A DNA stretch of 64,000 nt from Blastocatellia bacterium (GTDB taxonomy: Bacteria > Acidobacteriota > Blastocatellia > UBA7656), in the NCBI GenBank assembly GCA_963765495.1, contig CAVXWP010000007.1, positions 544,001-608,000 of the forward strand. Reading direction: 5' to 3'. Shown one piece after another: positions 3,003 through 22,625 of this stretch (the first letter of the stretch is position 1; every line of letters begins with the position of its first letter). Below the pieces are notes generated by a model that saw nothing but the letters and a program-made list of their open reading frames with translations, searched no databases and had not been told where the DNA came from. The position numbers and the translations under genes were made by a program.

Positions 3003-6000
3003 ATGAAACCGCATTCACGCTCGCTTTGGATTGCTTTGTTTCTGGTAGCTTTATTTACAATGGTATCGATGGGCGGAGTTGTTCCCGTACGGGTTAGCGC
3101 TCATGGCCCTCAAGGTCAGTCAACCAAACCAGCGCCGCAAAAGGGCGTCGCACCAAAAGAAGATTCCGATGAAGGGGAAGACCCCGACTTGCCCCGTTTC
3201 GCAAACGGCAAGGTGGATAAAGAGGCTTATATGAGGGCCAGACAGGATAATATAAGCCTGATTCGGGGAGTTGATCTGAACGGCAAATTCGATCCGTCCC
3301 TGCGCGTCAAGGCCATACGCCAACTGGAATTGCAGGCAGCGGCAAATGCGCCTGTAATCACCACGGCGGCGTGGACACAGATCGGCCCGGCTCCTATCCC
3401 CAACGGACAGACACAGACGACGACGACCGCCGTGAGCGGGCGCGTCACGGTTGTGGAGATTGATCCGACAAATTCAAGCCGGCTTTATGTAGGCACGGCT
3501 CAAGGCGGCGTCTATCGCTCGCTTGACGGCGGCACGACATGGGCTGCGATATTCGACGGCGCTCAATCGCTCGCCATCGGCGCGCTTGCGCTTGTTCCTA
3601 CCGACCCGACCACGCTTTATGTAGGCACGGGCGAAGCAAACGGCTCGTGCGACAGCTTTGCCGGTGTCGGGTTGTATCGCATAGATACTGTGACGACCAC
3701 TCCTGTGCTTGTAGGCCCGATAAACCCGGTTCGCAACTACAACGATGCCGGGGGCAATCCGCAGAGCGTACCCGCTTTCAACGGGCGCAGCATAAGCAAA
3801 ATACTTGTAAACCCGACCGATCCCGGCTCGCTTCTTGTCGGGACCGCTGGCGGAGTCATAGGAATCGGTTGCGACTCACCGCTCGGCGGCGCGGTTCCGC
3901 CTCTTTCAACGAGAGGGCTTTATCGGCTGGCGAATGCGGACGGCGACCCCGCAGGAGTAACGGTTGAGAAGATACCTGTTGCCACGACCGCGGTTGCGGG
4001 CGGATGTTTCGATCTTCCCTGCACGGCAAATCGCAGCGTAAACGATATGGTCTATGATCCGGCGGACACCAATATCCTGACGCTGTGGCTGAACGGAATA
4101 AACGTATCGGGTGACGGAGGCATATGGCGTTCGACAAACGCGCAGTCCGCCTCTCCGACCTTCACGCAGGTCTTTACCACGACGGCCACAAGCACCTCGA
4201 ACGGCAGAGGGGTCTTTGCCATTTACAAGCAGGGCGCAAACCCTACGGTCATTTATGAAGGAAGCGGGGAAGCAAGCACGGGCGGAACGCTCTGCAACAG
4301 TTCCGCAAACCAGGGGGCGCTCAGAAGATCGACCGACGGCGGCGCTACGTGGTCTGCAAAGCTTCCGGGCGGCGGCGGTTTCTGCGGCGGGCAATGTTTC
4401 TATAATCTCGGCCTCGCGGTAGTTCCCGGCGCGACCACCGCTACGGATACGGTTTATGTGGCAGGAAACGTGCAGAGCGCAAACTGCGCGAAGCTGCTGG
4501 GGAAATCGCTTGACGGCGCTGCGACCGTTTTTGCCAATCTCGATAACGGTCTGCACGCCGATACCCATGTGGTTAAGATCGATCCCAACAACTCTTCGGT
4601 TATCTATCACGGCAATGACGGCGGGATATACAAATCAACAAACGCCGCAGCTTCGTGGACCAGCCTCAACAACACAGGCTTTCACGCCACGCAGTTTCAG
4701 AGCATAGCCACGCATCCTACTGATCAGTTTTATACCATCGGCGGCACGCAGGATAACGGGACGGAATTTCTACAGCCGACCAATATCTGGACGCGCGCCG
4801 ATGCCGGGGACGGCGGCTTTGCCATGATAGATCAGAACGCGGTCAATACGACCAATGTGACGATGTATCACACCTACTTCAATCAGGCCGGAACTCAGAT
4901 AGGCTATGCCCGCGCTACGACAGCGGGCGGAGCCTGGTCGTTTCTCGGCTGCTCAGGGTCGGGAACCACAAGAGGCATCAGTTGCACAAACACGGTGAAT
5001 TTCTATGCGCCGACGGCTCTTGGGCCGGGAAGCCCGAACGTAGTCTATCTCGGCACCGACCGCCTCTATCGCTCTACCGATACGGGCAACAACAACACAA
5101 TAGTCAGCCAGGCGCCGCTTGTGAGCGGCGTGCCCATAAGCAGCATAGCCATTTCGCCGTTGAGCGACCTTGTGCGCGTAGTGGGTCTCAACGACGGCTC
5201 GCTTTTTTACACGACTACCGGGTCATCTACGCTGACAAATTTAGACCCGTCAAACATGATCCCGAATAAATATGTGGGGCGAATAAAAGTCGATCCGAAT
5301 AACAGCAACACGGTTTATATCGCGCTCGCTGGCTACACGGGCGCTACTACGCCGGACAACTCGCATGTGTGGAAGGTGACAAACCTGAGCACGACCCCTG
5401 TGATAACCGCGATCAACGGATCGGGACCTGACGCCCTGCCCGATGTTCCTGTGAACGGCTTTGTGGTTGACCCGGTCAACTCGAACGTGCTCTATGCCGG
5501 GACCGACATAGGTGTTTACAGATCAACGGACGCGGGGGCCAACTGGATGCCGTTTGGCACGGGGCTTCCGATAGTCGCTGTTTTCGATATGGAAATAGCG
5601 CAGAAGGGGACCACCTCTGAAATCCTGCGAATCGCAACGCACGGTCGCGGAATGTGGGAGATTTCGCTTGCCCCGACGCTTGCCAAAGTAGTCGATATAA
5701 ATGCCAGCCGCTTTGATGACGGGCGCGTGCTCGTAGAGTGGCAGACCGGCAGCGAGGTGAACAACCTCGGCTTCAATATTTATCGCGAGCAGGACGGCCA
5801 GCGCATTCGCGTGACTCCGCAACTCGTCGCAGGCGCGGCGCTCGTAACAGGTGCGGGAAGGTCACTGCTTTCAGGCCATACATATCAGTGGGCGGATATC
5901 CCGCCCGCAAATGCCAGAAAGGTGAGCTACTGGCTTGAAGACGTAGACCTCAACGGCCAGAGTTCGTGGACCGGGCCTATTGAGATAAAGCTCGCTCACG

Positions 6001-8159
6001 GCAAGAAATCCGACATAGATCTCAGGTCGGTGACGTTGGGCAGCCTCGGTATGCATCAGGCGCAGGTGACGGGCGGGGTCGGAACCGAGATAGCAGAGCG
6101 AGCGGCGGAAGTTCGAACGCTCACCCCGGCAGCTCAGGCTTCTCAGACCGCGATTGCTTCCGCCCCAGCCGTAAAGATCGGTGTGAAGCAGGAGGGCTGG
6201 TACAGGGTTAGTATGGCCGAACTCCTCGCGGCGGGGCTCAACCCGAATGCCGATCCTCGCAATCTGAAGGTTTTTGTAGACGGTCAGGAAATCCCAATCG
6301 TAGTCAAGAACGCGCCGTCCGGCTCGCCCGATGCGGTTGAATTTTACGCAGTAGGTCTGGATTCCGTCTCATCCAATATCCGCACCTACTGGGTAGTGGC
6401 GACAGATACCCCGGGGCTGAGGATCAGTCCTCAATCGGGCAAGGCCGGGACAATTACGGCGGGAAGCTTCCCCTACACCGTTCAAAGAAAGGATCGGACC
6501 ATATACTTTTCGGCGCTAAAAAACGGCGAGAAAGAGAATTTCTTTGGCCCGGTCGTTTCATCATCACCAATAGACCAGACGCTCACGCTCACGCATGTAG
6601 CTCAATCCGACGCTTCGGCCACGCTCGAAGTAGCTATGCAGGGCGTGACCCGACTGGCGCACGCGGTTACGATAACGCTCAACGGTGAGGCTGTGGGAAC
6701 GCTGAATTTTGCCGGGCAGGCTGCCGGGGTTGCCCGCCTCTCGATTCCGCAATCGAAACTGAAGGAAGGAAGCAACATCGTTCGGTTGACGGGCGGAAGT
6801 TCCGGCCAGGACGTGAGCCTCATCGATTCGATCAGCATCACCTATCAGCACAGCTATATCGCCGATAGCGATGCGCTTCAGCTCACGGCTGAGGCCGGTC
6901 GCCAGATTACTATAGACGGGTTCACGAGCGCATCGGTACGGGTCGTGGATGCCACCAACCCCGATTCCGTTCAGGAACTGGCCGCAACGGTCAAATCCGG
7001 CAAGTCGGGATTTTCCGTCACGGCCACTGCTCAAGGGTCGGGGGATCGCACTCTTCTGGCCTTTGGCGATTCGCAGGTAAGGCATCCGGTCTCGATTGTT
7101 TACAACCAGCCCTCGAACTGGCGGCAGTCAACTACAAGCGCTGACCTGATTATCATCACACGTCAGGATTTCATGACGAGCGTGCAGCCGCTTGTCAGCG
7201 CAAGACAGAATCAGGGGCTTTCTGTGGCTGTCGTCGATGTCGAGGACATCTATGATGAATTCAGCTTTGGCCATAAATCGCCGCAGGCGCTCAAGGATTT
7301 CATACTCTACGCGAGAAATTCCTGGGCAACGCCCGCTCGTTTTGCGCTGCTTGTCGGCGACGGCAGCTTCGATCCGAAGGACTATCTCGGCTATGGAAAT
7401 GCGGACCTCGTGCCGAGCAAACTCATAGACTCTCAGTTTGTAGAGACTGCCTCCGACGACTGGTATGCCGACTCAAACGAAGACGGTCTGGCGGAAATAG
7501 CCGTGGGACGTCTGCCGGTTCGCACCGCTCAGGAGGCCGCCGTTATGATTTCAAAGATCGTAGCCTTTGACCGCCAGGGAGTCACAAATTCGGTGTTGCT
7601 GGTCTCCGACAGCAACGACGGCTATAACTTTGAAGCCGCCAGCGCGCAGGTTCGAGGCATCATACCCGCCGGGATCAATGTGGAGCAGATTGACAGAGGG
7701 CAGGTGGGAACCCTTACGGCAAAGAGCCAGTTGATCGACGCAATAGCGCGAGGACAGAAGATAGTCAATTACACGGGGCACGGAAACGCGACCATTTGGA
7801 GAGATAATCTTCTGACGGCAGCAGACGCCAGAAAGCTGACCAACCGCACCCATCTGCCGCTGTTTGTTACGATGTCGTGTTTGAACGGGTATTATCAAGA
7901 CCCGGTGCTCGACTCGCTGGCCGAATCGCTGATGAAGGCCGAACGCGGCGGAGCCGTTGCCGTGTGGGCTTCATCGGGACTGACCGAGCCAAGCGGTCAG
8001 GTGGTTATGGATCGTCAGGTATTTCAGTTTATCCTGAACTCCACCGGCTCAGGGATGCGTCTGGGAGAAGCCGTTCTTGGAGCGAAGGCTTCCGTATATG
8101 ACGGCGATCTTCGCCGTACGTGGATACTTTTCGGCGACCCGACGATGAGGCTAAGATAA
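3003..8159 (+). CDS. Giant secreted protein: BNR/Asp-box beta-propeller passenger (VPS10/GH74-like), Ig-like domain and PorU-like C25 cysteine peptidase module
   Basis: N-terminal signal/TM segment. Asp-boxes YRSLDGGTTW, RRSTDGGATW and YRSTDAGANW. Junction APTLAKVVDI...EWQTGSEVNNLGFNIYR. C25 motifs DIYDEFS, LLVGDGSFDPK, AVGRLPVR, NYTGHG, MSCLNG and LFGDPTMRLR. Confidence 0.85.
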   Translation: MKPHSRSLWIALFLVALFTMVSMGGVVPVRVSAHGPQGQSTKPAPQKGVAPKEDSDEGEDPDLPRFANGKVDKEAYMRARQDNISLIRGVDLNGKFDPSLRVKAIRQLELQAAANAPVITTAAWTQIGPAPIPNGQTQTTTTAVSGRVTVVEIDPTNSSRLYVGTAQGGVYRSLDGGTTWAAIFDGAQSLAIGALALVPTDPTTLYVGTGEANGSCDSFAGVGLYRIDTVTTTPVLVGPINPVRNYNDAGGNPQSVPAFNGRSISKILVNPTDPGSLLVGTAGGVIGIGCDSPLGGAVPPLSTRGLYRLANADGDPAGVTVEKIPVATTAVAGGCFDLPCTANRSVNDMVYDPADTNILTLWLNGINVSGDGGIWRSTNAQSASPTFTQVFTTTATSTSNGRGVFAIYKQGANPTVIYEGSGEASTGGTLCNSSANQGALRRSTDGGATWSAKLPGGGGFCGGQCFYNLGLAVVPGATTATDTVYVAGNVQSANCAKLLGKSLDGAATVFANLDNGLHADTHVVKIDPNNSSVIYHGNDGGIYKSTNAAASWTSLNNTGFHATQFQSIATHPTDQFYTIGGTQDNGTEFLQPTNIWTRADAGDGGFAMIDQNAVNTTNVTMYHTYFNQAGTQIGYARATTAGGAWSFLGCSGSGTTRGISCTNTVNFYAPTALGPGSPNVVYLGTDRLYRSTDTGNNNTIVSQAPLVSGVPISSIAISPLSDLVRVVGLNDGSLFYTTTGSSTLTNLDPSNMIPNKYVGRIKVDPNNSNTVYIALAGYTGATTPDNSHVWKVTNLSTTPVITAINGSGPDALPDVPVNGFVVDPVNSNVLYAGTDIGVYRSTDAGANWMPFGTGLPIVAVFDMEIAQKGTTSEILRIATHGRGMWEISLAPTLAKVVDINASRFDDGRVLVEWQTGSEVNNLGFNIYREQDGQRIRVTPQLVAGAALVTGAGRSLLSGHTYQWADIPPANARKVSYWLEDVDLNGQSSWTGPIEIKLAHGKKSDIDLRSVTLGSLGMHQAQVTGGVGTEIAERAAEVRTLTPAAQASQTAIASAPAVKIGVKQEGWYRVSMAELLAAGLNPNADPRNLKVFVDGQEIPIVVKNAPSGSPDAVEFYAVGLDSVSSNIRTYWVVATDTPGLRISPQSGKAGTITAGSFPYTVQRKDRTIYFSALKNGEKENFFGPVVSSSPIDQTLTLTHVAQSDASATLEVAMQGVTRLAHAVTITLNGEAVGTLNFAGQAAGVARLSIPQSKLKEGSNIVRLTGGSSGQDVSLIDSISITYQHSYIADSDALQLTAEAGRQITIDGFTSASVRVVDATNPDSVQELAATVKSGKSGFSVTATAQGSGDRTLLAFGDSQVRHPVSIVYNQPSNWRQSTTSADLIIITRQDFMTSVQPLVSARQNQGLSVAVVDVEDIYDEFSFGHKSPQALKDFILYARNSWATPARFALLVGDGSFDPKDYLGYGNADLVPSKLIDSQFVETASDDWYADSNEDGLAEIAVGRLPVRTAQEAAVMISKIVAFDRQGVTNSVLLVSDSNDGYNFEAASAQVRGIIPAGINVEQIDRGQVGTLTAKSQLIDAIARGQKIVNYTGHGNATIWRDNLLTAADARKLTNRTHLPLFVTMSCLNGYYQDPVLDSLAESLMKAERGGAVAVWASSGLTEPSGQVVMDRQVFQFILNSTGSGMRLGEAVLGAKASVYDGDLRRTWILFGDPTMRLR

Positions 8160-8193
8160 GGTCTCCGCTCATATCCGGCGGTTAAACGATCTG

Positions 8194-8235
8194 GGGCTGA
8201 AAATGCGGTTTTAGCTGCATTTTCAGCCCTTTTTT
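8194..8235 (+). terminator. Rho-independent terminator
   Basis: Stem GGGCTGAAAATGCGG / CTGCATTTTCAGCCC followed by a T-run, 35 bp after the stop codon. Confidence 0.85.
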
Positions 8236-8331
8236 ATTCGAGTCGAAAACCCTTGAGGGGCTTTCTATCTATGCCGCCTCAAAAAGAGCCCAATAAAAAG
8301 CTTTCAACAGGGAAAACCGGGGATTTTCTGC

Positions 8332-8360
8332 TTGACTTAAATTTACGACAAGCATAAATT
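8332..8360 (+). promoter_or_regulatory. Putative sigma70 promoter for the 2017-aa gene
   Basis: TTGACT-17 bp-TAAATT, about 410 nt upstream of the ATG at 8772. Confidence 0.55.
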
Positions 8361-8771
8361 AGCCTCCATCAAGGGGAAGCAGTAACCAATTCAGTATGAG
8401 TATTCAAGAGCGAACAAGGGTCTTCTTGCTGAGGGCGGCCTTTCAGCCTCAGCTTACGGGTTGAAGACTAAGACACACCTTATTTTTAGTCGGTCATGAA
8501 AGACCGGCTTGAAGTTTGATTCAACTTAACAATCTGTTTTTGTAAGGCAGCTTTGCGCTGCGCCTGATACGTCAGTTTCTCGTTTTGAGGCTCCGGCTTG
8601 GCATCGGTTTAGCCCGACAGCCACAGGCAACACGCCGGGTGATGATCAGCCGCTGGCCGCGATGTAGAAACTGTATATCGGCGAGTTGGGTGGTGGCGTT
8701 CCTTATCAAATGGGATAGGAGCTAACTGCTAATGAATAACATATCGAGAAGAGATTAATGGAGAGTCCCCA

Positions 8772-11700
8772 ATGAAGATATCAAAGAAGAATTTGACACT
8801 GAAAAAATCGAGTGGACGGCTGATCGTCGCCACAACATTGATGTTTTTCTTATCAGTCATATTTTATCCAGTGACGCAGGGCCAGAATGGGTCGCAGGGC
8901 CAGAATGTAATCGAGCGCGCAACTGCGACGCTTGATGGGTCCGCGCTTGAAAGTGGAAAGAAGGCCCAGGCCTCAAGGGGACTGGGTGAAAGCGGCGCTA
9001 AAGGCTCGGGGGTCTCCGGCTCCGGCTCCGGCTCAGCCACTAAGCAGTCTCCAAACGTGGGCGAAGTTGCCAGTAATTACACCTTTGCCACAAATACCAC
9101 CGCGTCGCTTACCGATATGAGCACCGGCACAACTCAATTGCTCGGGCCAAACATTGACGACACCGCTTCGGCGCTCACCAATATCGGGTTTGACTTCTAT
9201 TTTCAGGGGGCGCGCTTCAGCCAGTTCTCGATCAATGAGAACGGCGTGTTTCGTCTAGGCGCAACCGCGCAGAGTTCTACTCCCTACAAGCCGCTTGCGC
9301 AGGCCGGTATTCCGATCATCACCGCTTACGGCGCAGACCAGCGGACGCACGCCGGAGACGGCAAAGTGCATTTCAAGGTGACCGGCTCGGCCCCGAACCG
9401 CGTGCTGACGGTTGAATGGCTCAACAACCAGGCCAATTTCAACACGGGCGGGACGGCAGACCTCACCTATCAGGTCAGACTCTATGAAACGACCGGCGTG
9501 ATCGAACTCGTCTACGGCAGCATGACGATGAGCGCTGCCGGGGCGGCCGATGCCAATTCAAGAGACCCGAACATCGGGTTTTCTTCGAGCAACACGGTCG
9601 GGACGGTCGGCTCTGTGACCGCCGCGCAAAGCGGCACACCCGCGCCGACATTCGACGGGACATCGGCCACAGCGGTGGCGAATCTTTATACGGCTGGCGC
9701 GATCACGGTGCTTACCTCTGCTACTAACGGCTCAAGGCGGATTTTTAGTTTCACGCCACCGACACCGACCGCGCCGACCGGCTTAAATTTCACCGGCGTC
9801 GCCCCGACCGCGATGATGCTCAACTGGACGGATTCACCAAATGAAACCATCTATGCCATATACCGCTCAACCGATGGCACAAACTTCACCTTCGACGGCA
9901 CGGCGGCACAGAACGCGACCTCATACGCGGCGTCGGGTTTGAATCCCAGCACGACTTATTTCTGGCGCGTGTTTGCCGTATCCGAAGGCGCGTTGAGCAC
10001 GGCGCTATCGGGCAGCCAGATGACATCGCCTGCCGGAATCGTTATGTCAACGGCTGCCGGCGGCAATTGGAGCAACCCGGCGACGTGGGTCGGGGGCAGC
10101 GTTCCTATCGCCAGCGACAATGTGACGATAGTTGACGGCGCGACCGTAACGATTGACACGGCGGCCGTAGCTTTGAACGTCACCGTAGGGCAGGGATCAT
10201 CCGGCATCTTGCAGTACGAGACTACGACGGCCCGCACGCTCACCGTTGGGCAGTCAGTGGTGGTATCGGCAGGAGGCACTTTCCAATCAGCCGCGACCGG
10301 CACCGTTACCACGCACGTTCTTTCGGTCGGAACGGATTTGACAAACAACGGCAATATTGATTTCAGCACCAACAGCAACACGGCGGGCGCGGGCATCACC
10401 TTTACCGGCGCAAACGACGCATCCTTTACCCTCGGCGCTGCCAGCACTACCGACTTCAAACAGACCGCTGGCGTCACCTTAAATAAGGGAACCAACAACA
10501 CGCCGGTTCTGACCTTCCTGCCCGGCGGCACAGTCACCGTATTGGGCGCTAATGCGGTCGGTTTCCTCACTATCACAAACGGCACGTTCAAGCTGTCGGG
10601 TGCCAATACATTCAGTAACCCGGTCTTTAACGCGGCGGCTTATTCGATTCCCGCGACGGGCGGATTCTGGATGAACAATGCCAACGCCACCGTCGTCGGG
10701 CTGAACGGCACGTCCACCCTTACGGGTATGTTCAGAATGTCGCAAGGCACGTTCAACATAGGCATCGCCACAGGCAACTCGATGGGCTTTGCTACGGGCA
10801 GTAACATTCTTGTGGAAGGGGGCGCAATAAACGCCACAGGCCGATTCGCCGTGTCGGCTTCAACCAGTGTCATTACCTACAATCAATCCGGCGGTACGAT
10901 CACTGTTTGCACCATCGGTAATGCCTCGACCACTCTCGCCAATTTCGACCTGGGAACCGCCATCGGGTCTACCGTTAACATAACCGGCGGCACGATCATC
11001 GTTCAACTCGCGAACACGGGAGGGTCCGGCCCGCGCGATTATCGCCATCAAGCCGGTACGACCGGGATTTTGAGCGTGACGGCGGGGACATTGCAACTGG
11101 GCAATGCCGCGTCAGGCGCAGCAAAGGCGTTCAACATCGCCGGTGTGCTTCCGAACCTTGTACTGAATAATGCCTCGGCCAATCATTCGGCGACCTTCCT
11201 GGCCCCGGTAGCCTTCAACAACATCTCGCTCGACATCACAATCAACACGGGCAATACGCTGAACATCGGCAACAATGTGTTTCTGATGAACGGGGCTACG
11301 TTAACCAATAATGGAACCTTGACCGCGAACGGAGCGAGTTCCAATTTTGTCTGGTTTCTGACGACGGCTCCGCAGATGTATACCGGCAGCGGCACGGTCA
11401 CAGCGCCGGTGACCAATTTCGCCATACAGTCAGACATGGGGCTGACCATTGACCCGGCCTCGTCCAACATCGTGGTCGGCGCAATCCGATTGTTCAGCGG
11501 CAATCTGATCAATTCCAACAAGATCACGCTAGGCAACGGCGGCGCTACCACAGGCATAGTGCAAATCGGCAATACGACTACGCCGACCGCAGCCGGAACT
11601 TTCGATGTGCCGTTTACCTTCAACCTCGGCACGGGCGGCGAAACGGTATCCTACTTGAGGACGACCTTGACCAGGACTACAGGGCCGGAGATCAATCCGA

Positions 11701-14700
11701 CCCGCACGCTCACGAGCATGACCTATGACGACAACGATGTTACCCATAGTCTGACCATCGCGGGCGGCGATCTCACGCTTGCAAGCGCCGCGACGGCGCT
11801 GACTTTGACAAACGGGCATATCCTCACCGGGGCCAATACTTTGATCCTGTCTTCCGGCACGGCCACTGTGACGCGAACAAACGGTTTCGTAGACGGCAAT
11901 TTCAGAAAGACCTACGCGGCGGCGGTCAACAAGACGTTCGAGGTGGGAACGGCCAACGGATTTTCGCCCGTAGCGGTCAACGCAACGGCCGGGACGTTCC
12001 CGGCTACGTTTACCGTAAAGGCGGTGCAGGGGCCGCAGCCCAATATCCTGTCGCCTCAACTGGCGCTGCAAAGATACTGGGTCCTCGACACCGCAGGAAT
12101 TACGACCGCCGATTTGACGTTCAACTATCTCGACCCGACCGACATCCCTGTCTCGGCTACCGAGGCGAATTTCGTCATCTTCAAGTATGACGGCGCGTTT
12201 ACAATGCCCGGCGGCACGGTCAACACCGCGGCCAATACGGCAAACATTACCGGCGTCATGTCGTTTTCAGACTGGACGCTTGCCGAACCGACCGCGCCTA
12301 CCGCTATCCAACTGGCGAGCTTCAGGGCCAGCAGCTATGACGCGGAGACGACCGGCGGCGGCGCTTCCGCTTCGAAGCGGAAATCGGGCGTCCTCATCGA
12401 ATGGAGAACCGGATTTGAGGTCGCCAACCTCGGCTTTAACATCTACAGACAGGAAGGCGAGAACCGCGTGCGGGTCAACCCCGATCTGATAGCGGGCTCG
12501 GCGCTGTTTGTAGGCGGCTCGACCGCATTGACCGCCGGACGCAGCTACAATTGGCGCGATCTCGGGTCGCGTGCCGGAGCAAACACCGATTACTGGCTCG
12601 AAGAGATCGACCTCAACGGCCAGAGCATCTGGCACGGTCCTGTAAGACCGACGCCTTCATCGGGCAGGCAGTTGTCATCGCTCGCCTCAGGCGACTCGAA
12701 GACGATGAGCGAGGTAAGCACCGAAACGGCCCGCTCGGGCGTGACCCGCCCCGTCGAGCAGTTCGCGCAATCGAGTAAATTCACAACCGCCCAGAAGAAG
12801 GCGCAACTTACCCTCGCGGGACAATCTGCGGTTAAAATAAGCGTGAGGCAGGCGGGCTATTACAGAGTCGGCCAGCCTGAATTGATCGCGGCCGGAATCA
12901 ACCCTTCGGTCGATCCGCGCCTGTTGCAGTTGAGCGTCAACGGGCAGGAAGTGCCGATCAGAGTGAGCGGAGAAAGTGACGGTCACTTCGATGCCGAGGA
13001 CGCGGTCGAGTTTTACGGCACGGGCGTAAACACGGCCTCAACGGATGCCCGCGTTTACTGGCTTGTGGCGGGGGCTCAGGCGGGCCGCCGCATTCAACCC
13101 GTGAGCGACGAGGGGACGGTCGAGTCGGGCAGCGGCTTTGCCTATACGGTTGAGCGCAGAGACCGCACGGTCTATTTCTCGGCGCTCAGAAACGGAGAGG
13201 CCGAGAACTTCTTTGGCGCGGTCCTTGCGCGCGATGCCGTGGATCAGACGCTCGCAGTCGAGCATCTGGACGGAGCGGGCGAGCAGGCGACGATTGAGGT
13301 CGCAGTGCAGGGAGTCACGCAGGTTCCGCACCGTGTCGGTGTCGAGATCAACGGCGAGTATGCCGGAGAAATGCTGTTTTACGGGCAAGCGGAAGGCAGA
13401 GGCACGTTTGCCGTATCGCATTCCTCGTTGAAAGAAGGCGATAACACGGTCAGGCTCGAATCGCGCGGCGGCCAAAATGATGTGAGCCTTGTGAATTACA
13501 TCAGGCTCACCTATCAGCACACCTTCATGGCTACGGACAATCTGTTGCGCGTGAATGCTTCGGGCAATCAGGAGGTGAGCATCAATGGATTCAGCACGTC
13601 AGATATTCGAGTGCTTGATGTCACCGACCCCGATAACGTTCAGGAAGTGCAGGGAAGCATAAAACGGGTGAAGGCGACTTATCAGGTGACCGTAGGCGTA
13701 CCGGGCGCGGGGGCGCGAAGTCTGCTTGCGATTGCCGAAGATCGGTTCGACGCTTCGGCGGCGGTTGTAGCAAATCAGCCTTCGAGCTTGCGGCAGCCGA
13801 AGAATGGAGCCGACCTGCTTATCATTACGCGAGCGGAATTCATCCCCGCCCTCGATCCGCTGGTTGCGCTGCGCCAGAGCCAGAAACTCGCCGTGGCGGT
13901 CATAGATATAGAAGACATCTATGATGAGTTTAGCTTCGGGCAGAAGTCGCCCGAGGCGGTCAGAGATTTCCTTGCCTATACGCGGGCAAGCTGGAAGAGG
14001 AAGCCGCAATATCTGCTCCTGGCAGGAGATTCCAGCTTCGATGCGAAGAATTATCTTGGGCTGGGAGATTACGATCTGGTTCCGTCGAAGCTTCTCGATA
14101 CTGTCTATCTCGAAACGGCGTCGGATGACTGGCTGGCGGATTTTGACGGAGACGGGCTGGCCGATATGGCCGTAGGCCGTTTGCCTTTCCGCTCTGTGGA
14201 TGAGGCGACCAGACTGGTATCAAAGATAGTCGGATATGAGAAGAAGGGAAGCTCGGCCTCGGTGCTGCTTGTAGCCGACCTGCCCGACGGGTACAACTTC
14301 GGGGAAACCAACGATCAGTTGAAGACGCTTGTTCCCGGAAACATTCGCGTTGTGGATGTGCGGCGCGGCGTAGACGATGATGCGACTACGAGGCAAAGGT
14401 TGATTGATGCTATCAACCAGGGTCAGAAGGTAGTCAATTACGTCGGGCATGGTTCGGTGACACTGTGGAGGGGCGACCTTCTGACATCGGATGATGTGAA
14501 TCAGTTAACAAACGCCGACAGATTGCCGTTGTTTGTGACGATGACGTGTCTGAACGGATACTTCCAGGACCCGACGCTTGATTCGTTGGCCGAGACCCTT
14601 TTGAAGGCCGAGCGCGGAGGAGCTATAGCCGTGTGGGCATCAAGCGGAATGACGATACCGGGAGATCAATCGTTGATGGATCGCGAGATGTTTAGAACGT

Positions 14701-14825
14701 TGTTTGGCACACCCGCCGGGCAGCGTCTGGGCGACCTGACGGTTAAAGCAAAGGCGGCGACCGGAGACAAAGACGTTCGGCAAACGTGGATACTGTTTGG
14801 CGATCCAAGCATGAGATTGAAATAA
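8772..14825 (+). CDS. Giant secreted protein: adhesin-like passenger (Fn3, G8-like, Gly/Thr/Asn-rich beta-helix), Ig-like domain and PorU-like C25 peptidase module
   Basis: Signal/TM segment. Fn3 (PTAPTGL...LNWTD...GLNPSTTYFWRVFAV). G8-like GGNWSNPATWVGGSVP...DNVTI. Junction FSDWTLAEPTAPTAIQLASF...EWRTGFEVANLGFNIYR. C25 motifs NYVGHG, MTCLNG and LFGDPSMRLK. Confidence 0.85.
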   Translation: MKISKKNLTLKKSSGRLIVATTLMFFLSVIFYPVTQGQNGSQGQNVIERATATLDGSALESGKKAQASRGLGESGAKGSGVSGSGSGSATKQSPNVGEVASNYTFATNTTASLTDMSTGTTQLLGPNIDDTASALTNIGFDFYFQGARFSQFSINENGVFRLGATAQSSTPYKPLAQAGIPIITAYGADQRTHAGDGKVHFKVTGSAPNRVLTVEWLNNQANFNTGGTADLTYQVRLYETTGVIELVYGSMTMSAAGAADANSRDPNIGFSSSNTVGTVGSVTAAQSGTPAPTFDGTSATAVANLYTAGAITVLTSATNGSRRIFSFTPPTPTAPTGLNFTGVAPTAMMLNWTDSPNETIYAIYRSTDGTNFTFDGTAAQNATSYAASGLNPSTTYFWRVFAVSEGALSTALSGSQMTSPAGIVMSTAAGGNWSNPATWVGGSVPIASDNVTIVDGATVTIDTAAVALNVTVGQGSSGILQYETTTARTLTVGQSVVVSAGGTFQSAATGTVTTHVLSVGTDLTNNGNIDFSTNSNTAGAGITFTGANDASFTLGAASTTDFKQTAGVTLNKGTNNTPVLTFLPGGTVTVLGANAVGFLTITNGTFKLSGANTFSNPVFNAAAYSIPATGGFWMNNANATVVGLNGTSTLTGMFRMSQGTFNIGIATGNSMGFATGSNILVEGGAINATGRFAVSASTSVITYNQSGGTITVCTIGNASTTLANFDLGTAIGSTVNITGGTIIVQLANTGGSGPRDYRHQAGTTGILSVTAGTLQLGNAASGAAKAFNIAGVLPNLVLNNASANHSATFLAPVAFNNISLDITINTGNTLNIGNNVFLMNGATLTNNGTLTANGASSNFVWFLTTAPQMYTGSGTVTAPVTNFAIQSDMGLTIDPASSNIVVGAIRLFSGNLINSNKITLGNGGATTGIVQIGNTTTPTAAGTFDVPFTFNLGTGGETVSYLRTTLTRTTGPEINPTRTLTSMTYDDNDVTHSLTIAGGDLTLASAATALTLTNGHILTGANTLILSSGTATVTRTNGFVDGNFRKTYAAAVNKTFEVGTANGFSPVAVNATAGTFPATFTVKAVQGPQPNILSPQLALQRYWVLDTAGITTADLTFNYLDPTDIPVSATEANFVIFKYDGAFTMPGGTVNTAANTANITGVMSFSDWTLAEPTAPTAIQLASFRASSYDAETTGGGASASKRKSGVLIEWRTGFEVANLGFNIYRQEGENRVRVNPDLIAGSALFVGGSTALTAGRSYNWRDLGSRAGANTDYWLEEIDLNGQSIWHGPVRPTPSSGRQLSSLASGDSKTMSEVSTETARSGVTRPVEQFAQSSKFTTAQKKAQLTLAGQSAVKISVRQAGYYRVGQPELIAAGINPSVDPRLLQLSVNGQEVPIRVSGESDGHFDAEDAVEFYGTGVNTASTDARVYWLVAGAQAGRRIQPVSDEGTVESGSGFAYTVERRDRTVYFSALRNGEAENFFGAVLARDAVDQTLAVEHLDGAGEQATIEVAVQGVTQVPHRVGVEINGEYAGEMLFYGQAEGRGTFAVSHSSLKEGDNTVRLESRGGQNDVSLVNYIRLTYQHTFMATDNLLRVNASGNQEVSINGFSTSDIRVLDVTDPDNVQEVQGSIKRVKATYQVTVGVPGAGARSLLAIAEDRFDASAAVVANQPSSLRQPKNGADLLIITRAEFIPALDPLVALRQSQKLAVAVIDIEDIYDEFSFGQKSPEAVRDFLAYTRASWKRKPQYLLLAGDSSFDAKNYLGLGDYDLVPSKLLDTVYLETASDDWLADFDGDGLADMAVGRLPFRSVDEATRLVSKIVGYEKKGSSASVLLVADLPDGYNFGETNDQLKTLVPGNIRVVDVRRGVDDDATTRQRLIDAINQGQKVVNYVGHGSVTLWRGDLLTSDDVNQLTNADRLPLFVTMTCLNGYFQDPTLDSLAETLLKAERGGAIAVWASSGMTIPGDQSLMDREMFRTLFGTPAGQRLGDLTVKAKAATGDKDVRQTWILFGDPSMRLK

Positions 14826-14831
14826 GATAAC

Positions 14832-14908: not shown

Positions 14909-14959
14909 ATTTCATTTACGCATTCCCAATAAACGGAGGTTGGTTTAATCTCTACGGGT

Positions 14960-15367: not shown

Positions 15368-15595
15368 GATATTCCTCCCGGCGTGCTGGTCATGTGTCTT
15401 TATATATGCCAGGGTCGGGCGCGGTCAATGTGCGGTCAATTTCTTGTGGAAGGGGGTAAATATATTCGACGCGGAAATACATGCGAGGAGCTTTGAAAGA
15501 CAAAGGCTCACAGCGAAAGCTATAGATTTTTGATGGCTGCATGCCTTAGTGATAAATCATCCTTTTTGTGGTGCTGAAATCCTTACTATATACCC

Positions 15596-15625
15596 TTGAC
15601 GAATGGCACAGGCTGGAAGTAGGAT
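15596..15625 (+). promoter_or_regulatory. Putative sigma70 promoter for the 1915-aa gene
   Basis: TTGACG-18 bp-TAGGAT. Confidence 0.4.
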
Positions 15626-15919
15626 AGCGCCACACCAGTGATTGTTGAGTTGAGGAGGCTTTTTCAAGACCTGTAACCTGGGATTATGCTCTGCTGATTA
15701 CAATACAAAAGCAAATCGCGTCGGTTTTGAAATGCTAAATAAATATCTGTGAGTTTTGCGGGCCGGAAATGCGCTGGTTTTACTTGAATCCATCAGTGGA
15801 AATAGCTCTGATAGGTATAACCGAGGATTTGCTCGGATTGAGCGCGAATCCTTCGAAGAACTGGCGCTGAATCTTCCGGGTTTCGTTAAGGCATAAATAG
15901 CATCAAGAGGAGACATAGA

Positions 15920-18900
15920 ATGAGGGTTTCAATAAAGCGCGCAAGGCATTTGGGAAGTCTGGCAATTATTGTTGTTGGATTGGCAGGCTGGCTGGTTTTG
16001 CCGGGACTTTTAGGCCGGGCTACAACATCCGCTCATATCGGCGAACAGGGGTTGTCAAAGGGAGCACAGGTAGAGGCCGGACTCGACCCCCAACGCCAAA
16101 AAGCGCTTGAGAACCTCTATGCTCAATTTACGGCAGGCGCACCTTTTTCAAGAGAGGAATCCAATATCCTGACCAGATTTGGCGCAGGTGAGAAGATATA
16201 CGATCTTGAGGCCGATATAGTAATCTCTCGCGCGCTTTACGCTTATTACATTCTGGGCAAGGCATTGACGCGTGATCAGCAGGTTTTGCTCGACAGGTAC
16301 AGTTCAGCCGTTGCGCACCGAAACACCGATATAGCCGACCTGAAAGAACAGCTACAGCAGCGGCGCAAGGCTGCCGCCGCAAATGCGCCGCCTCGGACGA
16401 CACCCGAAGTTGCGCCCGCAAATGACACCTGCGCAGGCGCTCAGGTTGTTCCCGCCGCCGGGCCGTTTCCTTTTCTGACTACAACCGTCGATATCACCGA
16501 CGCGACAGGCACAAATGAACCGGCGCTCCCTACGTGCACGTCACCGGCATCGCCTCCCGATCCGACCGTTGTCACGCGAGGCGTCTGGTACACCTTTACT
16601 CCGTCAGCGACGGCAACCTACACCCTGGCCACCTGCGCGGAAGCGCCCACCGCTACGACGGTTGACGATACGGTTATGGCAATCTACACCTCCACGGGAG
16701 GTTGCGCCGGTCCGTTCACTCAGTTGGCGAATGATTCCGGGGATATTGACGGGTGTAACGACGACAGTTGCGTCACTTTACAATCATCATTGCAATCGCA
16801 AATAACGACGCGTCTCAATGCGAGCACTACATATTACATCGTGATCTCGCTTTATGGCTCAGACCCACCAATAACGGGCATGACAAATGTCCAGATGAGA
16901 ATTACCAAAGAGAACCCTCCTGTAAATGACACATGCGCGACAGCGCCTTCGCTATCGCTCAATACGCCTGTCACAGGGTCTTTAATAGCAGCGCAAAATG
17001 ATTATCAACTAAATAATTCAGGTTGTTTTTCAGGCGTAGGGCAGACGCCGTCAACCGCAGCGGGTCGCGATGTGGTCTATTCTTTCACAGCGCCTTCGGC
17101 GGGTACCTACTCATTCAGAGTTACAAAATATAACGGCAGCGAGAGCGATCTGGTTATGTATGCCGCAAGCACCTGTCCGGCGGCAACGCCCGGAACCCCT
17201 GTAACCGTTAGCGGTTGTCTGGGCGCATCCAATCGGTTCGTTTCCGATTTCTTTGGAGGCCCATTCTCTTCGGAGGAAATTACTTGTCTTTCGCTTACTG
17301 CGAGCCAGCAGATCTTCATATTCGTAGACCAGGATAGTTTGAGCACGGGCAGCACTTTTACCATCGAAGCGAACCAGTGTGTTCGCGAAACCGAGGCGAA
17401 TAATACTCCTGCCACAGCCAATCCTTTCGTATGCGGTATAGAAGGAAGTATTACTCCGGCAGGAGATGCGGATTTTTATTCTCTGGGGACATTTACGTCC
17501 GGCTCGCGTCTGTTTGCGCTGGTTGATGGCGTGGCCGCCAACGGGGACGATTTCGATCTGCGCGTGACCACAACCACCGACACACTTGAGTACGACGATA
17601 TAGATTCAACCGAAGCCTTTGGCGATAACTCGGGAACCGTTGCGGGTACGCCTCTAACGAGCGCGGCAACGTTTCTGAGGGTGAGCTATTTCGATCCCTC
17701 AACGGCGAGCGAGCCATATCGTGTGTACGCGGCGGTGCAACCTCCAATCGCTTCGGCTACTTCGGAAACCGAGCCGAACAACACAATAGGAACTGCCAAT
17801 TCGGCTGCGAATAACTATTTCACTGGAACGTTGAGCGGCCCGTCGCCATCGACCGATATAGACATCTATAGCTTCACGGGGCAGGCCGGAGACCTGGTAT
17901 TCATCGGTCTGGATGGCGACCCGCTTCGAAACAACACTCCGATCAATGCCAGGCTGGCATTGCTGGACTCGTCCGGCAACTTAATACTTGAAGTCAACAA
18001 CAACAATTCTTTTTCAAATACGACTTCGGGTGCGGGCAGCCTGACATCAACGACACCAAATTCGCCTGCCGAGTCTATCGTATTTCGGGTGATGACAGGA
18101 GGCACTTATTACGCGAGAGTAGCAATTGATTCATTCGCCACCGGAGCGGTTGCAAGCGGAGATTATCTGCTTTCGATAGCAAAGAATTGTACGACAGGCC
18201 CTTCGGTCAGCAATTCAATATCAGGGACGATCTCTTATTGCATCGACAACTCAAAGAAAGTCCCCAACGCCACCGTCCAGACTACCAGCGGTTCCCCTTC
18301 CGCTTCCACTACTACTAACGCCTCCGGCTTCTATCAACTCGATAACCTCGGCACTGGCCCTTACACCGTTGCTCCTTCCAAAACCGGTGCCGTCTCCGGC
18401 ATCTCTGCTCAGGATATCGGTATCCTCCGCCGCCTCGCCGCTGGCATCGATACCCCCACTCCCTGTCAATCCATCGCTGGCGATACAGATAACAACGGCT
18501 CGCTCGGCGCCCAGGACATCGGCTTCCTTCGAAGATTTGTCGCTCAACTTACTACCACTGGCATCACTGGCTCCTGGAAATTCTCTCCCGCCTCTAGGAG
18601 TTATCCCTCGCTTGTTTCAAATCAAACAAACCAGGATTACGATGCCTTGCTGATCGGAGATGTTGACGGCAACTGGACCCCCGCTGCTCCTGATCCTGCT
18701 TCATTTCAGAAGAGTCAGGCTCCTTCGGCCACTAACCTTGCCCTCTCTTTGCCCAGTGTCGTTGCTCCTCCCGGTTCTACTGATGTCTCTATCCCGGTCA
18801 TGGTTAACGGCACTCTCACAAACGGCGATTTCGTTTTGGGCTACACAATCGAGATCAGTTTCGATCCCAGCGTGCTGGTTCCACATTCGCCCTCATTCAA

Positions 18901-21667
18901 CACGACAGGGACGGTCTCATCGACCGGGGTCGTCACAGAGAACACGGGTGTGTCGGGGAGGCTCCGACTTGTGGTCGATTTCCAGAATCCGCTGATATTC
19001 ACAGGGCAGCAGACGCTGATAATATTGAGGTTCGATGTGGTAGGGACACAGGGACAGATGAGCGGGCTCAACTGGTTCTTCACGGAATTTGGGAGCGGCC
19101 CACCTGCCGTCACCACCACGACTACAAACGGCAACTTCACCGTCACAAGCCCCACTGCCGTAAAAGTCGATGCCTTCAAGGCCACGGGCTTTGACAAGGG
19201 CGTATATCTCCAGTGGCAGACCGGGTTTGAATCTACTAACCTCGGCTTCAACATCTATCGCCAGCAGGCGGGCAAACTCTCTCTTGTTACGCCTGAAATA
19301 TTGGCCGGGTCGGCGCTTTTGACAGGTGACACGCCCTTGCTTGCCGGGCGGAAATATTCGTGGTGGGATAATTCACCCGATAGTAAACAGGACGCGCTCT
19401 ATTATCTGGAAGACATTGACCTCAACGGCACAAGGAGCCTGCACGGGCCGATAGTTGCAACCAGAGCATCAGGCAATCCGCCTGCTGGCTCTCGGGCCGA
19501 GTTGTTGAGCCGGATGGGCAGAGGCAAGGCTACAATCAGCGACTACGTCGCTTCCTCCTCCCCTGGCAGCGCCCAACTGGCAACCGTTTCCTCAAAGAAA
19601 GGATTACAAAACTCCAGGCGAGAGACAGTGCCTGTTGATCTGGCGACCTCCTCTGCCATAAAGATGTGGATAGGCAATAGCGGGCTCTATCGCCTCACTC
19701 AGCCGCAACTGCTGAGCGCCGGCCTCGATTCCGGGATAGATCCGCGACTCTTGCAGATGTATGTCGACGGGCAGGAGGTTCCAATCCTTGTCACTGGCCA
19801 GGAGGACGGAAGATTTGATGCCACGGACACAGTGGAATTCTACGCTTCGGCAATCGACAGCCCGTTCACCTCGAAGCGGGTCTACTGGCTTGTGGCAGGG
19901 ACAGTGGCGGGAAGACGGATAACAAAAGTGACGAGTCCCGGGAAGGGGCAGAGCAACGCTAGTTTTACCTCGACCCTGGAGCGACGAGACAAGACGATCT
20001 ACTTTTCGAGTTTGAGGAACGGGGATGAGGAGAACTTCTTTGGGCCGGTCATAGCCTCGCAGGAAGTCGATCAGTCGATAGATGTGAAAGATATGGCAGC
20101 GGGAGGAGGAACTGGGGCAGTGCTTGAAGTGGGATTACAGGGAGTAAGTGCGGTCAACCATCGAGTAAAAGTGAGGTTGAACGGGACGGAGTTGGGAGAG
20201 GTAGATTACAGTGGGCAGGGAGCAGGAGTAGGGAGATTCACACTCTCAAGCGGGCAACTGGTGGAAGGAAGAAACGACATCAAGATGGAGGGGGTGGGAA
20301 CAGGAGGAGATGTGAGCCTGGCCGAGTATGTGAGAGTGAGCTATGAGAGGAGGTACAAGGCGGAAGGAGATGAGTTGAGATTCCGAGCAGAGGGGGGCCA
20401 GGAGGTAAAGATAGGAGGGTTCACAAGCGAACGGATACGAGTATTTGATGTAACGGAGGAAGGGAATGTAGTGGAGATAGGAGGAGCGATAGAAGAGAGC
20501 GGGAACGGGTATGAGATAGGGATCAAGGTAGGAGGAGCAGGAGAGAGAGAGATGATGGCGATAGAGGAAGGGGAGGTGAGAGAGGTAGGAGAGATGAGAA
20601 AGAACGAGGCGTCGAAGCTGAGAGCGACGAGCCAGGGAGCGGACCTGTTGATAATCACGACGGGAGAGATGGGAGGAAGTCTGGAAGGGTTGAAGGCGCT
20701 GAGACAGAGTCAGGGGATGGCGGTAGCGATAGTGAAGGTGGAAGACATCTATGACGAGTTCAGCCAGGGAGAGAAGACGCCGTATGCGATAAGAGAATTT
20801 CTGATATATGCGAAGAGGAACTGGAAGAGGAAGCCGGGATATGTGTTGATGGGAGGGGATGCGAGTTACGACCCGAAGAATTATCTGGGAGCGGGGGAAT
20901 GGGATCTGGTGCCGACGAAGTTGGTGGACACGGCGTATCTGGAGACGGCCTCAGATGAATGGATGGTGGACGAGGATGGAGACGGGATAGGAGAGATGGC
21001 GATAGGGCGACTGCCGATAAGGAGCGAGGAAGAAGGGATGAGGATGGTAGGGAAGATAATGAGTTATGAGAGAGGAGTATCGAGGAGGAGTGTGTTATTG
21101 GTATCGGATGCGAATGATGGATACAACTTTGAGCAGGCGAACGAAGAGTTGAAGGGGATGATACCGAAGGGGACGAGGATAGAAGAGGTAAAGAGGGGGC
21201 AGATGAGCGAGGAGGAAGCGAGGGCGAGGGTGATAGGAGGGATAAACGAAGGGCAGGCGATAGTGAGTTATGCAGGGCACGGGTCGGTGGATATATGGAG
21301 AGGAGAGATATTGAGGAGCGAGGATGGAGAGATAATGAGGAATGGTAATCAGTTGAGTGTATTTCTGATGATGACGTGTTTGAACGGATATTTTGAGGAT
21401 CCGATGTTGGAGAGTTTGGGAGAGGCGATGATGAAGGCGGAGAGGGGAGGAGCGGTAGCGGTATGGGGGTCGAGCGGGATGTGTGAAGCGGGAGAGCAGG
21501 CGGCAGTGAGCAAGGAGATGATGAGGGAGCTAAACAGTGTGGAGGGGTTGACGAAGAAGAAGGTGACGATAGGAGAAGCGGCGAGGAGGGCGAAGGGGAG
21601 GATAGGAGATGTGGATGTAAGGAGGACGTACGTGTTGTTGGGAGACCCGACTATGCGCCTCAGATAA
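15920..21667 (+). CDS. Giant secreted protein: Cys-rich NDTC repeats, PPC-like ETEPNN domains, dockerin-like and cohesin-like domains, Ig-like domain and PorU-like C25 peptidase module
   Basis: GAGGAG RBS and signal/TM segment. PANDTCA and PVNDTCA repeats; ETEANNT and ETEPNNT repeats. Duplicated AQDIG(I/F)LRR with GDTDNNG. Cohesin-like ISFDPSVL...LRFDVVG. Junction SPTAVKVDAF...QWQTGFESTNLGFNIYR. C25 motifs SYAGHG, MTCLNG and LLGDPTMRLR. Confidence 0.85.
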   Translation: MRVSIKRARHLGSLAIIVVGLAGWLVLPGLLGRATTSAHIGEQGLSKGAQVEAGLDPQRQKALENLYAQFTAGAPFSREESNILTRFGAGEKIYDLEADIVISRALYAYYILGKALTRDQQVLLDRYSSAVAHRNTDIADLKEQLQQRRKAAAANAPPRTTPEVAPANDTCAGAQVVPAAGPFPFLTTTVDITDATGTNEPALPTCTSPASPPDPTVVTRGVWYTFTPSATATYTLATCAEAPTATTVDDTVMAIYTSTGGCAGPFTQLANDSGDIDGCNDDSCVTLQSSLQSQITTRLNASTTYYIVISLYGSDPPITGMTNVQMRITKENPPVNDTCATAPSLSLNTPVTGSLIAAQNDYQLNNSGCFSGVGQTPSTAAGRDVVYSFTAPSAGTYSFRVTKYNGSESDLVMYAASTCPAATPGTPVTVSGCLGASNRFVSDFFGGPFSSEEITCLSLTASQQIFIFVDQDSLSTGSTFTIEANQCVRETEANNTPATANPFVCGIEGSITPAGDADFYSLGTFTSGSRLFALVDGVAANGDDFDLRVTTTTDTLEYDDIDSTEAFGDNSGTVAGTPLTSAATFLRVSYFDPSTASEPYRVYAAVQPPIASATSETEPNNTIGTANSAANNYFTGTLSGPSPSTDIDIYSFTGQAGDLVFIGLDGDPLRNNTPINARLALLDSSGNLILEVNNNNSFSNTTSGAGSLTSTTPNSPAESIVFRVMTGGTYYARVAIDSFATGAVASGDYLLSIAKNCTTGPSVSNSISGTISYCIDNSKKVPNATVQTTSGSPSASTTTNASGFYQLDNLGTGPYTVAPSKTGAVSGISAQDIGILRRLAAGIDTPTPCQSIAGDTDNNGSLGAQDIGFLRRFVAQLTTTGITGSWKFSPASRSYPSLVSNQTNQDYDALLIGDVDGNWTPAAPDPASFQKSQAPSATNLALSLPSVVAPPGSTDVSIPVMVNGTLTNGDFVLGYTIEISFDPSVLVPHSPSFNTTGTVSSTGVVTENTGVSGRLRLVVDFQNPLIFTGQQTLIILRFDVVGTQGQMSGLNWFFTEFGSGPPAVTTTTTNGNFTVTSPTAVKVDAFKATGFDKGVYLQWQTGFESTNLGFNIYRQQAGKLSLVTPEILAGSALLTGDTPLLAGRKYSWWDNSPDSKQDALYYLEDIDLNGTRSLHGPIVATRASGNPPAGSRAELLSRMGRGKATISDYVASSSPGSAQLATVSSKKGLQNSRRETVPVDLATSSAIKMWIGNSGLYRLTQPQLLSAGLDSGIDPRLLQMYVDGQEVPILVTGQEDGRFDATDTVEFYASAIDSPFTSKRVYWLVAGTVAGRRITKVTSPGKGQSNASFTSTLERRDKTIYFSSLRNGDEENFFGPVIASQEVDQSIDVKDMAAGGGTGAVLEVGLQGVSAVNHRVKVRLNGTELGEVDYSGQGAGVGRFTLSSGQLVEGRNDIKMEGVGTGGDVSLAEYVRVSYERRYKAEGDELRFRAEGGQEVKIGGFTSERIRVFDVTEEGNVVEIGGAIEESGNGYEIGIKVGGAGEREMMAIEEGEVREVGEMRKNEASKLRATSQGADLLIITTGEMGGSLEGLKALRQSQGMAVAIVKVEDIYDEFSQGEKTPYAIREFLIYAKRNWKRKPGYVLMGGDASYDPKNYLGAGEWDLVPTKLVDTAYLETASDEWMVDEDGDGIGEMAIGRLPIRSEEEGMRMVGKIMSYERGVSRRSVLLVSDANDGYNFEQANEELKGMIPKGTRIEEVKRGQMSEEEARARVIGGINEGQAIVSYAGHGSVDIWRGEILRSEDGEIMRNGNQLSVFLMMTCLNGYFEDPMLESLGEAMMKAERGGAVAVWGSSGMCEAGEQAAVSKEMMRELNSVEGLTKKKVTIGEAARRAKGRIGDVDVRRTYVLLGDPTMRLR

Positions 21668-22608: not shown

Positions 22609-22625
22609 ATTATTAAAGGTTTTGA

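Follow-up and report, generated by a model that had tools for sequence, protein, structure and literature searches.

Sortase-like anchoring in Gram-negative bacteria has been described for the T9SS (type IX secretion system) of Bacteroidota (PMC4560394). Its peptidase PorU removes a folded C-terminal domain (CTD) from the cargo and then releases the cargo or links it to anionic lipopolysaccharide (A-LPS; PMC11285876, PMC10202324). Cleavage follows the rule T/E/D/N|G/A/S (PMC10202324), HBP35 being cut at EPT|AT (PMC4560394); PorU and PorZ retain CTDs of their own (PMC11285876), and a conserved arginine at Cys+32 has been proposed as a sortase feature of PorU (PMC4560394). Here we analyze three giant genes, A, B and C, in a stretch of 64,000 nucleotides (the window) from a Blastocatellia bacterium of the phylum Acidobacteriota (UBA7656; assembly GCA_963765495.1, contig CAVXWP010000007.1, positions 544,001 to 608,000, forward strand). 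Their products share a C-terminal module consisting of a Pro-Thr junction, an immunoglobulin-like domain (PT-Ig), PorU-like N-terminal domains and a C25 peptidase domain with the His/Cys dyad. On balance, we favor the reading that PT-Ig is a C-terminal sorting tag and the C25 domain its processing peptidase, here fused to the cargo. We distinguish three layouts: fusions that would sort themselves, as in the window; a stand-alone enzyme that would act on dozens of cargoes with a PT|AA tag; and operons in which cargo-tag and enzyme genes are split.

Three Proteins with a Common C-Terminal Module

The genes and the parts of their products are listed below.

3003..8159, +: gene A, 1718 amino acids (aa); signal-peptide-like N-terminus, Vps10/BNR-like beta-propeller passenger, putative sorting/C25 module
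5673..8159, +: gene A module of 828 aa, with PT|L as its junction (5673) and the His and Cys codons at 7779 and 7878
8193..8238, +: terminator-like hairpin of 17 pairs with a T run, 3' of gene A (consensus scan)
8772..14825, +: gene B, 2017 aa; beta-rich passenger with Fn3 and a weak G8 match, putative sorting/C25 module
12297..12305, +: Pro-Thr-Ala at the gene B junction, with PT|A as the proposed cut (from junction conservation and the structural model)
12297..12659, +: PT-Ig of gene B, which may act as a C-terminal sorting tag; beta-sandwich in the model, found at the end of separate cargo proteins in split loci
12801..13805, +: N-terminal domains of PorU type in gene B, among them a jelly roll resembling carbohydrate-binding modules (profile and structure matches)
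13806..14825, +: catalytic (C25) domain of gene B, with His and Cys codons at 14448 and 14547 and Gly at the position of the conserved PorU arginine
15920..21667, +: gene C, 1915 aa; weak PPC and CarboxypepD matches, cohesin-like part, putative sorting/C25 module
19151..21667, +: gene C module of 838 aa, with PT|A as its junction (19151) and the His and Cys codons at 21278 and 21377

A first-pass annotation, made from the sequence alone, described an array of three co-oriented genes with unrelated passengers and a shared C-terminal module of about 830-840 aa, in which the catalytic His and Cys are kept. All of this holds. The modules span 828-842 aa (842 aa in gene B, from the Pro-Thr at 12297), BLASTP similarity among A, B and C is confined to them (41-47% identity over about 843-890 columns) with no mutual alignment of the passengers, and each protein ends at GDP.MRL(R/K). 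The array itself is only part of the set, comprising three of the 11 module loci in the source genome (G000; 7.3 Mb, 97.9% complete). Among the passenger labels, fn3 in B passes the Pfam cut-off, but Vps10/BNR in A, G8 in B, and PPC and CarboxypepD in C stay below it, and neither dockerin nor cohesin was called by Pfam in passenger C. The genes probably do not form one operon, as they are separated by gaps of 612 bp (A-B) and 1094 bp (B-C) and a strong hairpin follows gene A; the consensus scan returned 24 terminator sites against 18.1 expected, so only this strong one was counted.

The C25 domain was matched by Pfam Peptidase_C25 (PF01364) over the last ~335 residues of A, B and C, with E-values of 1e-74 to 1e-85 (252-286 bits against a cut-off of 23). 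The NCBIfam PorU model (NF033707) matched the modules along positions 2-733 of its 1095 and over ~670 residues, scoring 252-272 bits against a cut-off of 420. Since the matched positions begin at the start of the profile, the likeness to the PorU N-terminal region, which the first-pass annotation had noted, is real. The AlphaFold2 (AF2) model of module B (pLDDT 89.8, pTM 0.89) has the latent PorU crystal structure 6ZA2 as its top Foldseek match (E 2e-29, 817 columns); VIA-align placed 548 residues of the two in register (model 168-842 on chain 32-788, Z 21.6, root-mean-square deviation (rmsd) 5.8). Residues ~278-411 resemble carbohydrate-binding modules (CBM36/GH86, Z ~10), and the first ~120 form the Ig-like beta-sandwich of PT-Ig, with the PT|A of gene B lying in a coil ahead of the first strand. 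The catalytic domain superposes best on the gingipain RgpB.

His and Cys of the module align with those of RgpB and PorU, and both residues are present in all 82 C25 domains aligned (these rows, like those for the residue after the junction, P1', and the DUF4214-insert counts given below, were collected with anchored regular expressions, which miss proteins with insertions). To judge from this dyad, the C25 domain is catalytically intact. The region corresponding to the acidic S1 residue of gingipains is gapped, and was placed differently in two alignments. Conservation at the junction reaches 0.84, versus 0.28 in the eight residues before it; an alignment of 26 rows with a mean identity of 39% shows its Thr conserved at 90% or more. 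Among 251 fused junctions, PT or PS was found in 225, T or S only in 24 and neither in two, against a background of 384 of 2230 windows (17%). The 3' part of gene C (window 20000-22000) is strongly purine-skewed, with 413 G and 299 A in one kb versus ~290 and ~230 elsewhere, which gives a Glu/Gly-rich version of the module; a copy on contig C1 is 99.5% identical there.

The proteins bear no T9SS CTD, as the first-pass annotation had stated: they end at the catalytic domain, and no match to the CTD model (TIGR04183) was found in the source genome. That annotation had also called for a search for T9SS genes. TIGR04183 and PorV had no matches in G000 and in three further genomes each, with the positive control matching, but the zero matches to SprA, GldM and PF18962 were obtained without a matching positive control. 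G000 encodes LpxC and two secretins, one of them in a gene cluster that, read by eye, we take to be type II secretion-like. In quick trees, the acidobacterial enzymes form a group of their own far from the two PorU sequences included, and stand-alone enzymes are nested among fused ones. Both trees contained two PorU and no gingipains, one leaving out two partial rows and the other using 38 of the 82. No order of events is claimed, because the alternative topology is retained by the approximately unbiased (AU) test (p 0.121).

Copies of the Module and Shuffling of Passengers

Two of the 11 module loci of G000 are frameshift-broken, and the passengers at these loci include nuclease/phosphatase, PKD/Fn3, SBBP propellers and FG-GAP/beta-helix. 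Two segments of gene C recur elsewhere:

18206..21669, +: 3464 bp recurring at 99.5% in a second gene (contig C1) with a different N-terminus
18205..19430: ~1230 bp recurring at 93% in a third gene, ahead of a different module

Contigs of sequencing run X1, perhaps made from the same sample as the genome, have loose ends at both borders, 18206 and 19430. As judged from these repeats, passengers are being shuffled by recent recombination. Contig C1 also carries a tandem duplicate of a giant module gene with its neighbors (125741-158513, L001 and L002; 93-98% identity, one copy frameshifted) and another frameshifted module copy at 608934-613793.

Of 7999 proteins scored in a search with the module B protein, 2054 reached E<=1e-20, and those with a name belong to Blastocatellia or Acidobacteriota; all 120 proteins examined among the matches listed have one PT-Ig each and the module at the C-terminus. 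Blastocatellia account for 65 of the 77 genome loci with the module. In the family of the window (f1), C25 was found in 23 of 26 genomes, the highest number of fused copies (PF01364) being at least 14. In the phylum, C25 occurs in 130 of 301 sampled genomes, not always as part of the module. Passengers of fused proteins include enzymes (S8 peptidase, exonuclease/phosphatase), and the propeptide PF08126 was recorded for several fused homologs. At L103:3640-12801 and L093:12163-12588, a signal-peptidase-I-like (S24/S26) domain seems to be fused to, or to overlap the start of, passenger-module genes, adjoined by radical SAM and PqqD-like genes. No PorU homologs were found in viral contigs. No trans cargo was found within G000, all 11 PT-Ig matches being fused to the module and the terminal tail described in the next section being absent; a distant-query search for shorter PT-Ig carriers gave three matches, and the two inspected look like frame-broken fused genes.

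Stand-Alone Enzymes and Tagged Cargo

In another family of the same class (f3, which we take to be probably Pyrinomonadaceae), the module directly follows the signal peptide in a protein of 860-1050 aa, and 11 loci were classed as stand-alone on this basis. In genus g6 the gene occupies a conserved site. These enzymes score 205-221 bits against NF033707, again under the cut-off of 420. Many exported proteins of f3 genomes end in P[TS]AA followed by a 90-aa CarboxypepD-like Ig (in genera g6, g12 and g222, each genome encodes 7-41 tagged proteins), while in genera g9 and g13 the tail Ig is followed by DUF4214. The tail has a transthyretin/Cna-B-like fold of the CarboxypepD type (Foldseek) with PTAA in a coil before the first strand of its own model, and no relation to PT-Ig was detectable (hhalign probability 0.5%).

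Within f3, enzyme and tail have the same distribution. Tail and PF01364 were surveyed in 121 genomes of the class, counts being among the candidates scored. The tail model matched 23 of 31 f3 genomes, two of 26 f1 genomes (a single match apiece, of which one was inspected and lacks the motif) and none in other families; PF01364 matched the identical 23 f3 genomes. Genus g13 is divided in both features alike, with G216 and G377 positive and G189 and G285 negative. DUF4214 proteins also occur in enzyme-free f3 genomes, and the PTAA-Ig insert was present in 0 of the 18 read.

The tail and the module also replace each other behind related passengers. A G132 protein that shares 59% identity with passenger A over 860 aa has a PTAA-Ig-DUF4214 tail instead of the module; another, with 56% identity to passenger B over 1191 aa, runs on into PSAA-Ig-DUF4214; and the last 308 aa of passenger C are 38.5% identical to a third protein bearing the tail. 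In each case similarity stops at the junction, after which PTAA or PSAA leads into the tail. P[TS] precedes the tail Ig in 19 of 27 terminal tails, 24 of 25 Ig+DUF4214 tails and both open-ended ones, compared with 2 of 33 other Ig domains of the tail kind, 0 of 17 in C25-negative genomes and 2 of 26 in G000. The first tails were picked by Pfam PF13620 regardless of motif and later ones by a model containing it; terminal tails came from 20 regions chosen among 129 PF13620 matches. The top PF13620 matches in f3 were rejected as terminal tails, since they are not terminal; by eye, we take them to be mostly N-terminal domains of TonB-receptor-like proteins. Many f3 exported proteins share yet another tail, of FG-GAP-like repeats ending in a VPVPNAFVR-like sequence (L137, L149, L151, L156), possibly a second sorting or anchoring tail.

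Split Cargo-Tag and Enzyme Genes

In other families of Acidobacteriota, the C25 gene retains the PorU-like domains without PT-Ig, and separate exported proteins end in PT-Ig. The PT-Ig genes adjoin the enzyme gene or lie within ~4 kb of it at 11 split loci, several of these regions having been selected for close coordinates.

Split loci: L094, L097, L098, L241, L242/286, L244, L283, L284, L285, L299, L302

Among 31 distinct enzyme-free PT-Ig proteins, 13 end no more than 50 aa past the domain and 18 at 51-150 aa. Of the 301 phylum genomes, C25 was found in 92 of the 101 with PT-Ig, and PT-Ig in 9 of the 171 without C25 (G023 among them); this co-occurrence is partly trivial where both sit in one protein. 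A set of 117 homologs comprised 78 with PorU-like N-terminal domains or C25, 33 with Ig only (many of which look truncated or frame-broken) and six that the model used did not recognize. In P0362, P0364 and P0368, two of which are named Chloroflexota proteins, PT-Ig lies near the C-terminus and is followed by a short tail or by a hydrophobic segment with basic residues. With the ends of the Chloroflexota Ig-only proteins taken to be short or membrane tails, this suggests a membrane-anchored form of the tag. The split-type enzymes of L095 (8643-11411), L096 and L097 carry ~200 extra N-terminal residues, presumably a gingipain-like propeptide.

Proposed Mechanism and Alternative Explanations

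Each gene would encode cargo, sorting tag and sorting peptidase in a single chain. The chain would be exported by Sec and might then cross the outer membrane by way of the type II-like cluster. The peptidase would recognize the Ig tag and cut at its N-terminal border, most likely at Thr|X, in either its own or a sibling chain. This would leave the passenger as a thioester on the Cys, to be resolved by water, with release, or by a surface amine, with anchoring, as in PorU. A glycan acceptor would be bound by the domain resembling carbohydrate-binding modules. The C-terminal half predicted to result when a fused protein is cut has the same architecture as the f3 stand-alone enzyme. The first-pass annotation had proposed that each protein processes itself in cis; it missed that PT-Ig, which opens the module, is probably the tag and that the system probably operates in trans as well.

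The sorting role gains from the swapped tails, from the identical distribution of enzyme and tagged cargo and from the split operons, but loses from the missing PorU arginine. A tag with a PorU-like peptidase is favored here because it is the simplest account of the three layouts. Processing at the junction is slightly more likely than not, with PT|A as the likely site, which fits the PorU cleavage rule; if processing occurs, covalent anchoring seems about as likely as not. The broadest claim, which we hold to be possible but rather doubtful, is that Acidobacteriota have a sortase-like system independent of the T9SS, with a PorU-related C25 enzyme at its core and three layouts that can turn into one another, and that this system links cargo covalently to a surface glycan. 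Proteins that bear the tag in Chloroflexota and Bacteroidota give a hint that the T9SS may have acquired PorU from this older module.

Several observations weigh against sorting by a junction cut. Split-type tags start with PT or PS in only 3 of 31 cases (PL or PW in 13, other pairs in 15) and P1' varies widely among distant fused proteins, so the junction motif may be partly structural. In the homolog P0379, PLPVTL-Ig is followed by a further C-terminal segment that we take to be T9SS-CTD-like, and the motif may therefore be just the first strand of the Ig. The catalytic domain of module B aligns with RgpB over 311 residues with Z 41.3 and rmsd 2.0 (VIA-align), and the arginine at Cys+32, present in both PorU sequences, is replaced in every one of the 80 domains that are not PorU, for the most part by Gly, Ala, Ser or Thr. 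The 23/23 co-occurrence of enzyme and tail is among kin, 16 of the 23 genomes belonging to one genus, and the tail motif counts are partly circular, later loci having been found with the motif-containing model. No acceptor gene travels with the module: NTP_transf_5, a frequent neighbor, is present in 105 of 121 class genomes and hence names no acceptor.

The same peptidase might cut after the Ig, in the variable linker (residues ~1297-1343 of the gene B protein), leaving the Ig on the passenger like the Ig that precedes the CTD in T9SS cargo, the Pro-Thr being structural. The linker is the least conserved part of the module (0.40) and the least confidently modeled (pLDDT 56-73, residues 121-150), a T9SS-CTD protein is the named Atlas cluster nearest to the Ig (score 0.85, which serves only as a lead), and another 51-150 aa lie behind 18 of the 31 split tags. 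We nevertheless consider this rather improbable: many f3 cargoes and 13 of the 31 split ones end with the Ig, so that nothing is left behind it to remove, and an unrelated Ig has the same P[TS]A ahead of it only where the genome bears the enzyme. A modular surface protease that stays uncleaved, a gingipain-like degradative or maturing C25 enzyme targeted by interchangeable N-terminal binding domains, would agree with the catalytic fold nearest to active RgpB, with the absence of the PorU arginine and with passengers shuffled by recent recombination. It is unlikely in our view, because many passengers are themselves enzymes, the same passengers are protease-free but tagged exactly where a stand-alone enzyme exists, and the PorU-type N-terminal domains, absent from the gingipain matches, are kept.

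The Ig could also be a non-covalent docking or export tag that is never removed, with C25 tethering the cargo or trimming propeptides or envelope proteins. DUF4214, which follows the g9/g13 tail, could anchor cargo uncut; it is reported to belong to an O-antigen-binding protein in Pseudomonas (bioRxiv 10.64898/2026.09.02.748959), and PorU and PorZ themselves keep their CTDs (PMC11285876). The catalytic dyad is nevertheless invariant, and since DUF4214 proteins of enzyme-free genomes lack the PTAA-Ig insert, this insert depends on the enzyme. We hold uncut docking to be quite improbable.

Genomic Neighborhood and Significance

A cassette that is a frequent but non-obligatory neighbor of the module follows gene C:

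21784..24328, +: HprK-like kinase, PqqD-like protein with Cys-rich tail, NTP_transf_5 nucleotidyltransferase

Among loci L001-L106 and the window, NTP_transf_5 was found near the module at 16 loci, PqqD at 15, HprK at nine and a Wzc/ParA-like cluster of polysaccharide export genes at 10; an obligate link between module and nucleotidyltransferase was ruled out by the near-universal presence of the latter in the class. The PqqD-like protein (22709-23188), encoded between the kinase and the nucleotidyltransferase, has a Tat-like RR segment and a Cys-rich C-terminal tail, and could be a recognition element fused to a precursor peptide. A large exopolysaccharide/O-antigen cluster lies downstream of the three genes (26149-56741), with genes for a tetratricopeptide repeat (TPR) protein, O-antigen ligase, Wza, Wzc, flippase, many glycosyltransferases, a heparinase II/III-like protein and DegT. 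Positions 58244-60019 encode a weak CagX/VirB9-like protein and then a lytic transglycosylase, with no other type IV secretion genes in the window.

If the tag-and-peptidase reading is true, abundant soil Acidobacteriota have a second sorting system, which would explain the display of adhesins and enzymes of a thousand residues and more, and the surface proteome of tagged-cargo genomes could be predicted from a sequence tag. The fusions would provide a single-chain, partner-free model of PorU-type chemistry and a test of whether the arginine is needed for transpeptidation, and a 90 kDa module that cleaves or ligates itself could serve protein engineering. No description of a PorU-like C25 sorting system in Acidobacteria or Blastocatellia was found in a literature search in which subscription journals were largely uncovered.

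Comparison with Known Systems

By their profile matches the proteins are members of peptidase family C25 (clan CD). With PorU (PG0026, the T9SS signal peptidase/sortase of P. gingivalis; 6ZA2) they share the order of N-terminal domains and C25, the His/Cys dyad, a proposed junction PT|A that fits its T/E/D/N|G/A/S rule, and partner cargo ending in a small Ig-like tag. In contrast to PorU, the modules score under the family cut-off, have an extra Ig in front and no C-terminal Ig or CTD, have the conserved arginine replaced, sit on a separate tree branch, and are usually fused to cargo, in one to at least 14 copies, and no CTD proteins or PorV were found in the genomes tested. The proteins are thus not PorU orthologs, failing on cut-off, arginine, CTD and partners alike. 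The gingipains RgpB and Kgp (1CVR, 4IEF, 4RBM) have the same catalytic fold and dyad and likewise no arginine at the PorU position, but identity is ~21-24% and confined to the catalytic domain, and the module has PorU-type N-terminal domains and an Ig at its N-terminus besides, without a CTD. The gingipain order of propeptide, catalytic domain, IgSF, optional adhesins and CTD is not that of the module, where C25 comes last, behind the passenger, and Pfam found no gingipain propeptide in the window proteins; by architecture they are not gingipains.

T9SS CTD cargo (TIGR04183/PF18962) likewise comprises diverse Sec-exported proteins with a terminal beta-sandwich of ~90-110 aa and a co-occurring C25 enzyme. 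The f3 tail differs in having no match to the CTD model and in its CarboxypepD/transthyretin-like fold, no T9SS CTD structure being among the Foldseek matches listed. Cis-acting autoprocessing modules, such as the MARTX cysteine protease domain, the FrpC self-processing module and Hedgehog/Hint, also have a processing domain fused to variable cargo, with different folds or chemistry; we know of none with both a trans-acting form and free tagged cargo. The modules most likely work like PorU. The feature itself is real, probably a CTD-plus-sortase variant of sorting outside the T9SS, and its stand-alone and split layouts are new here.

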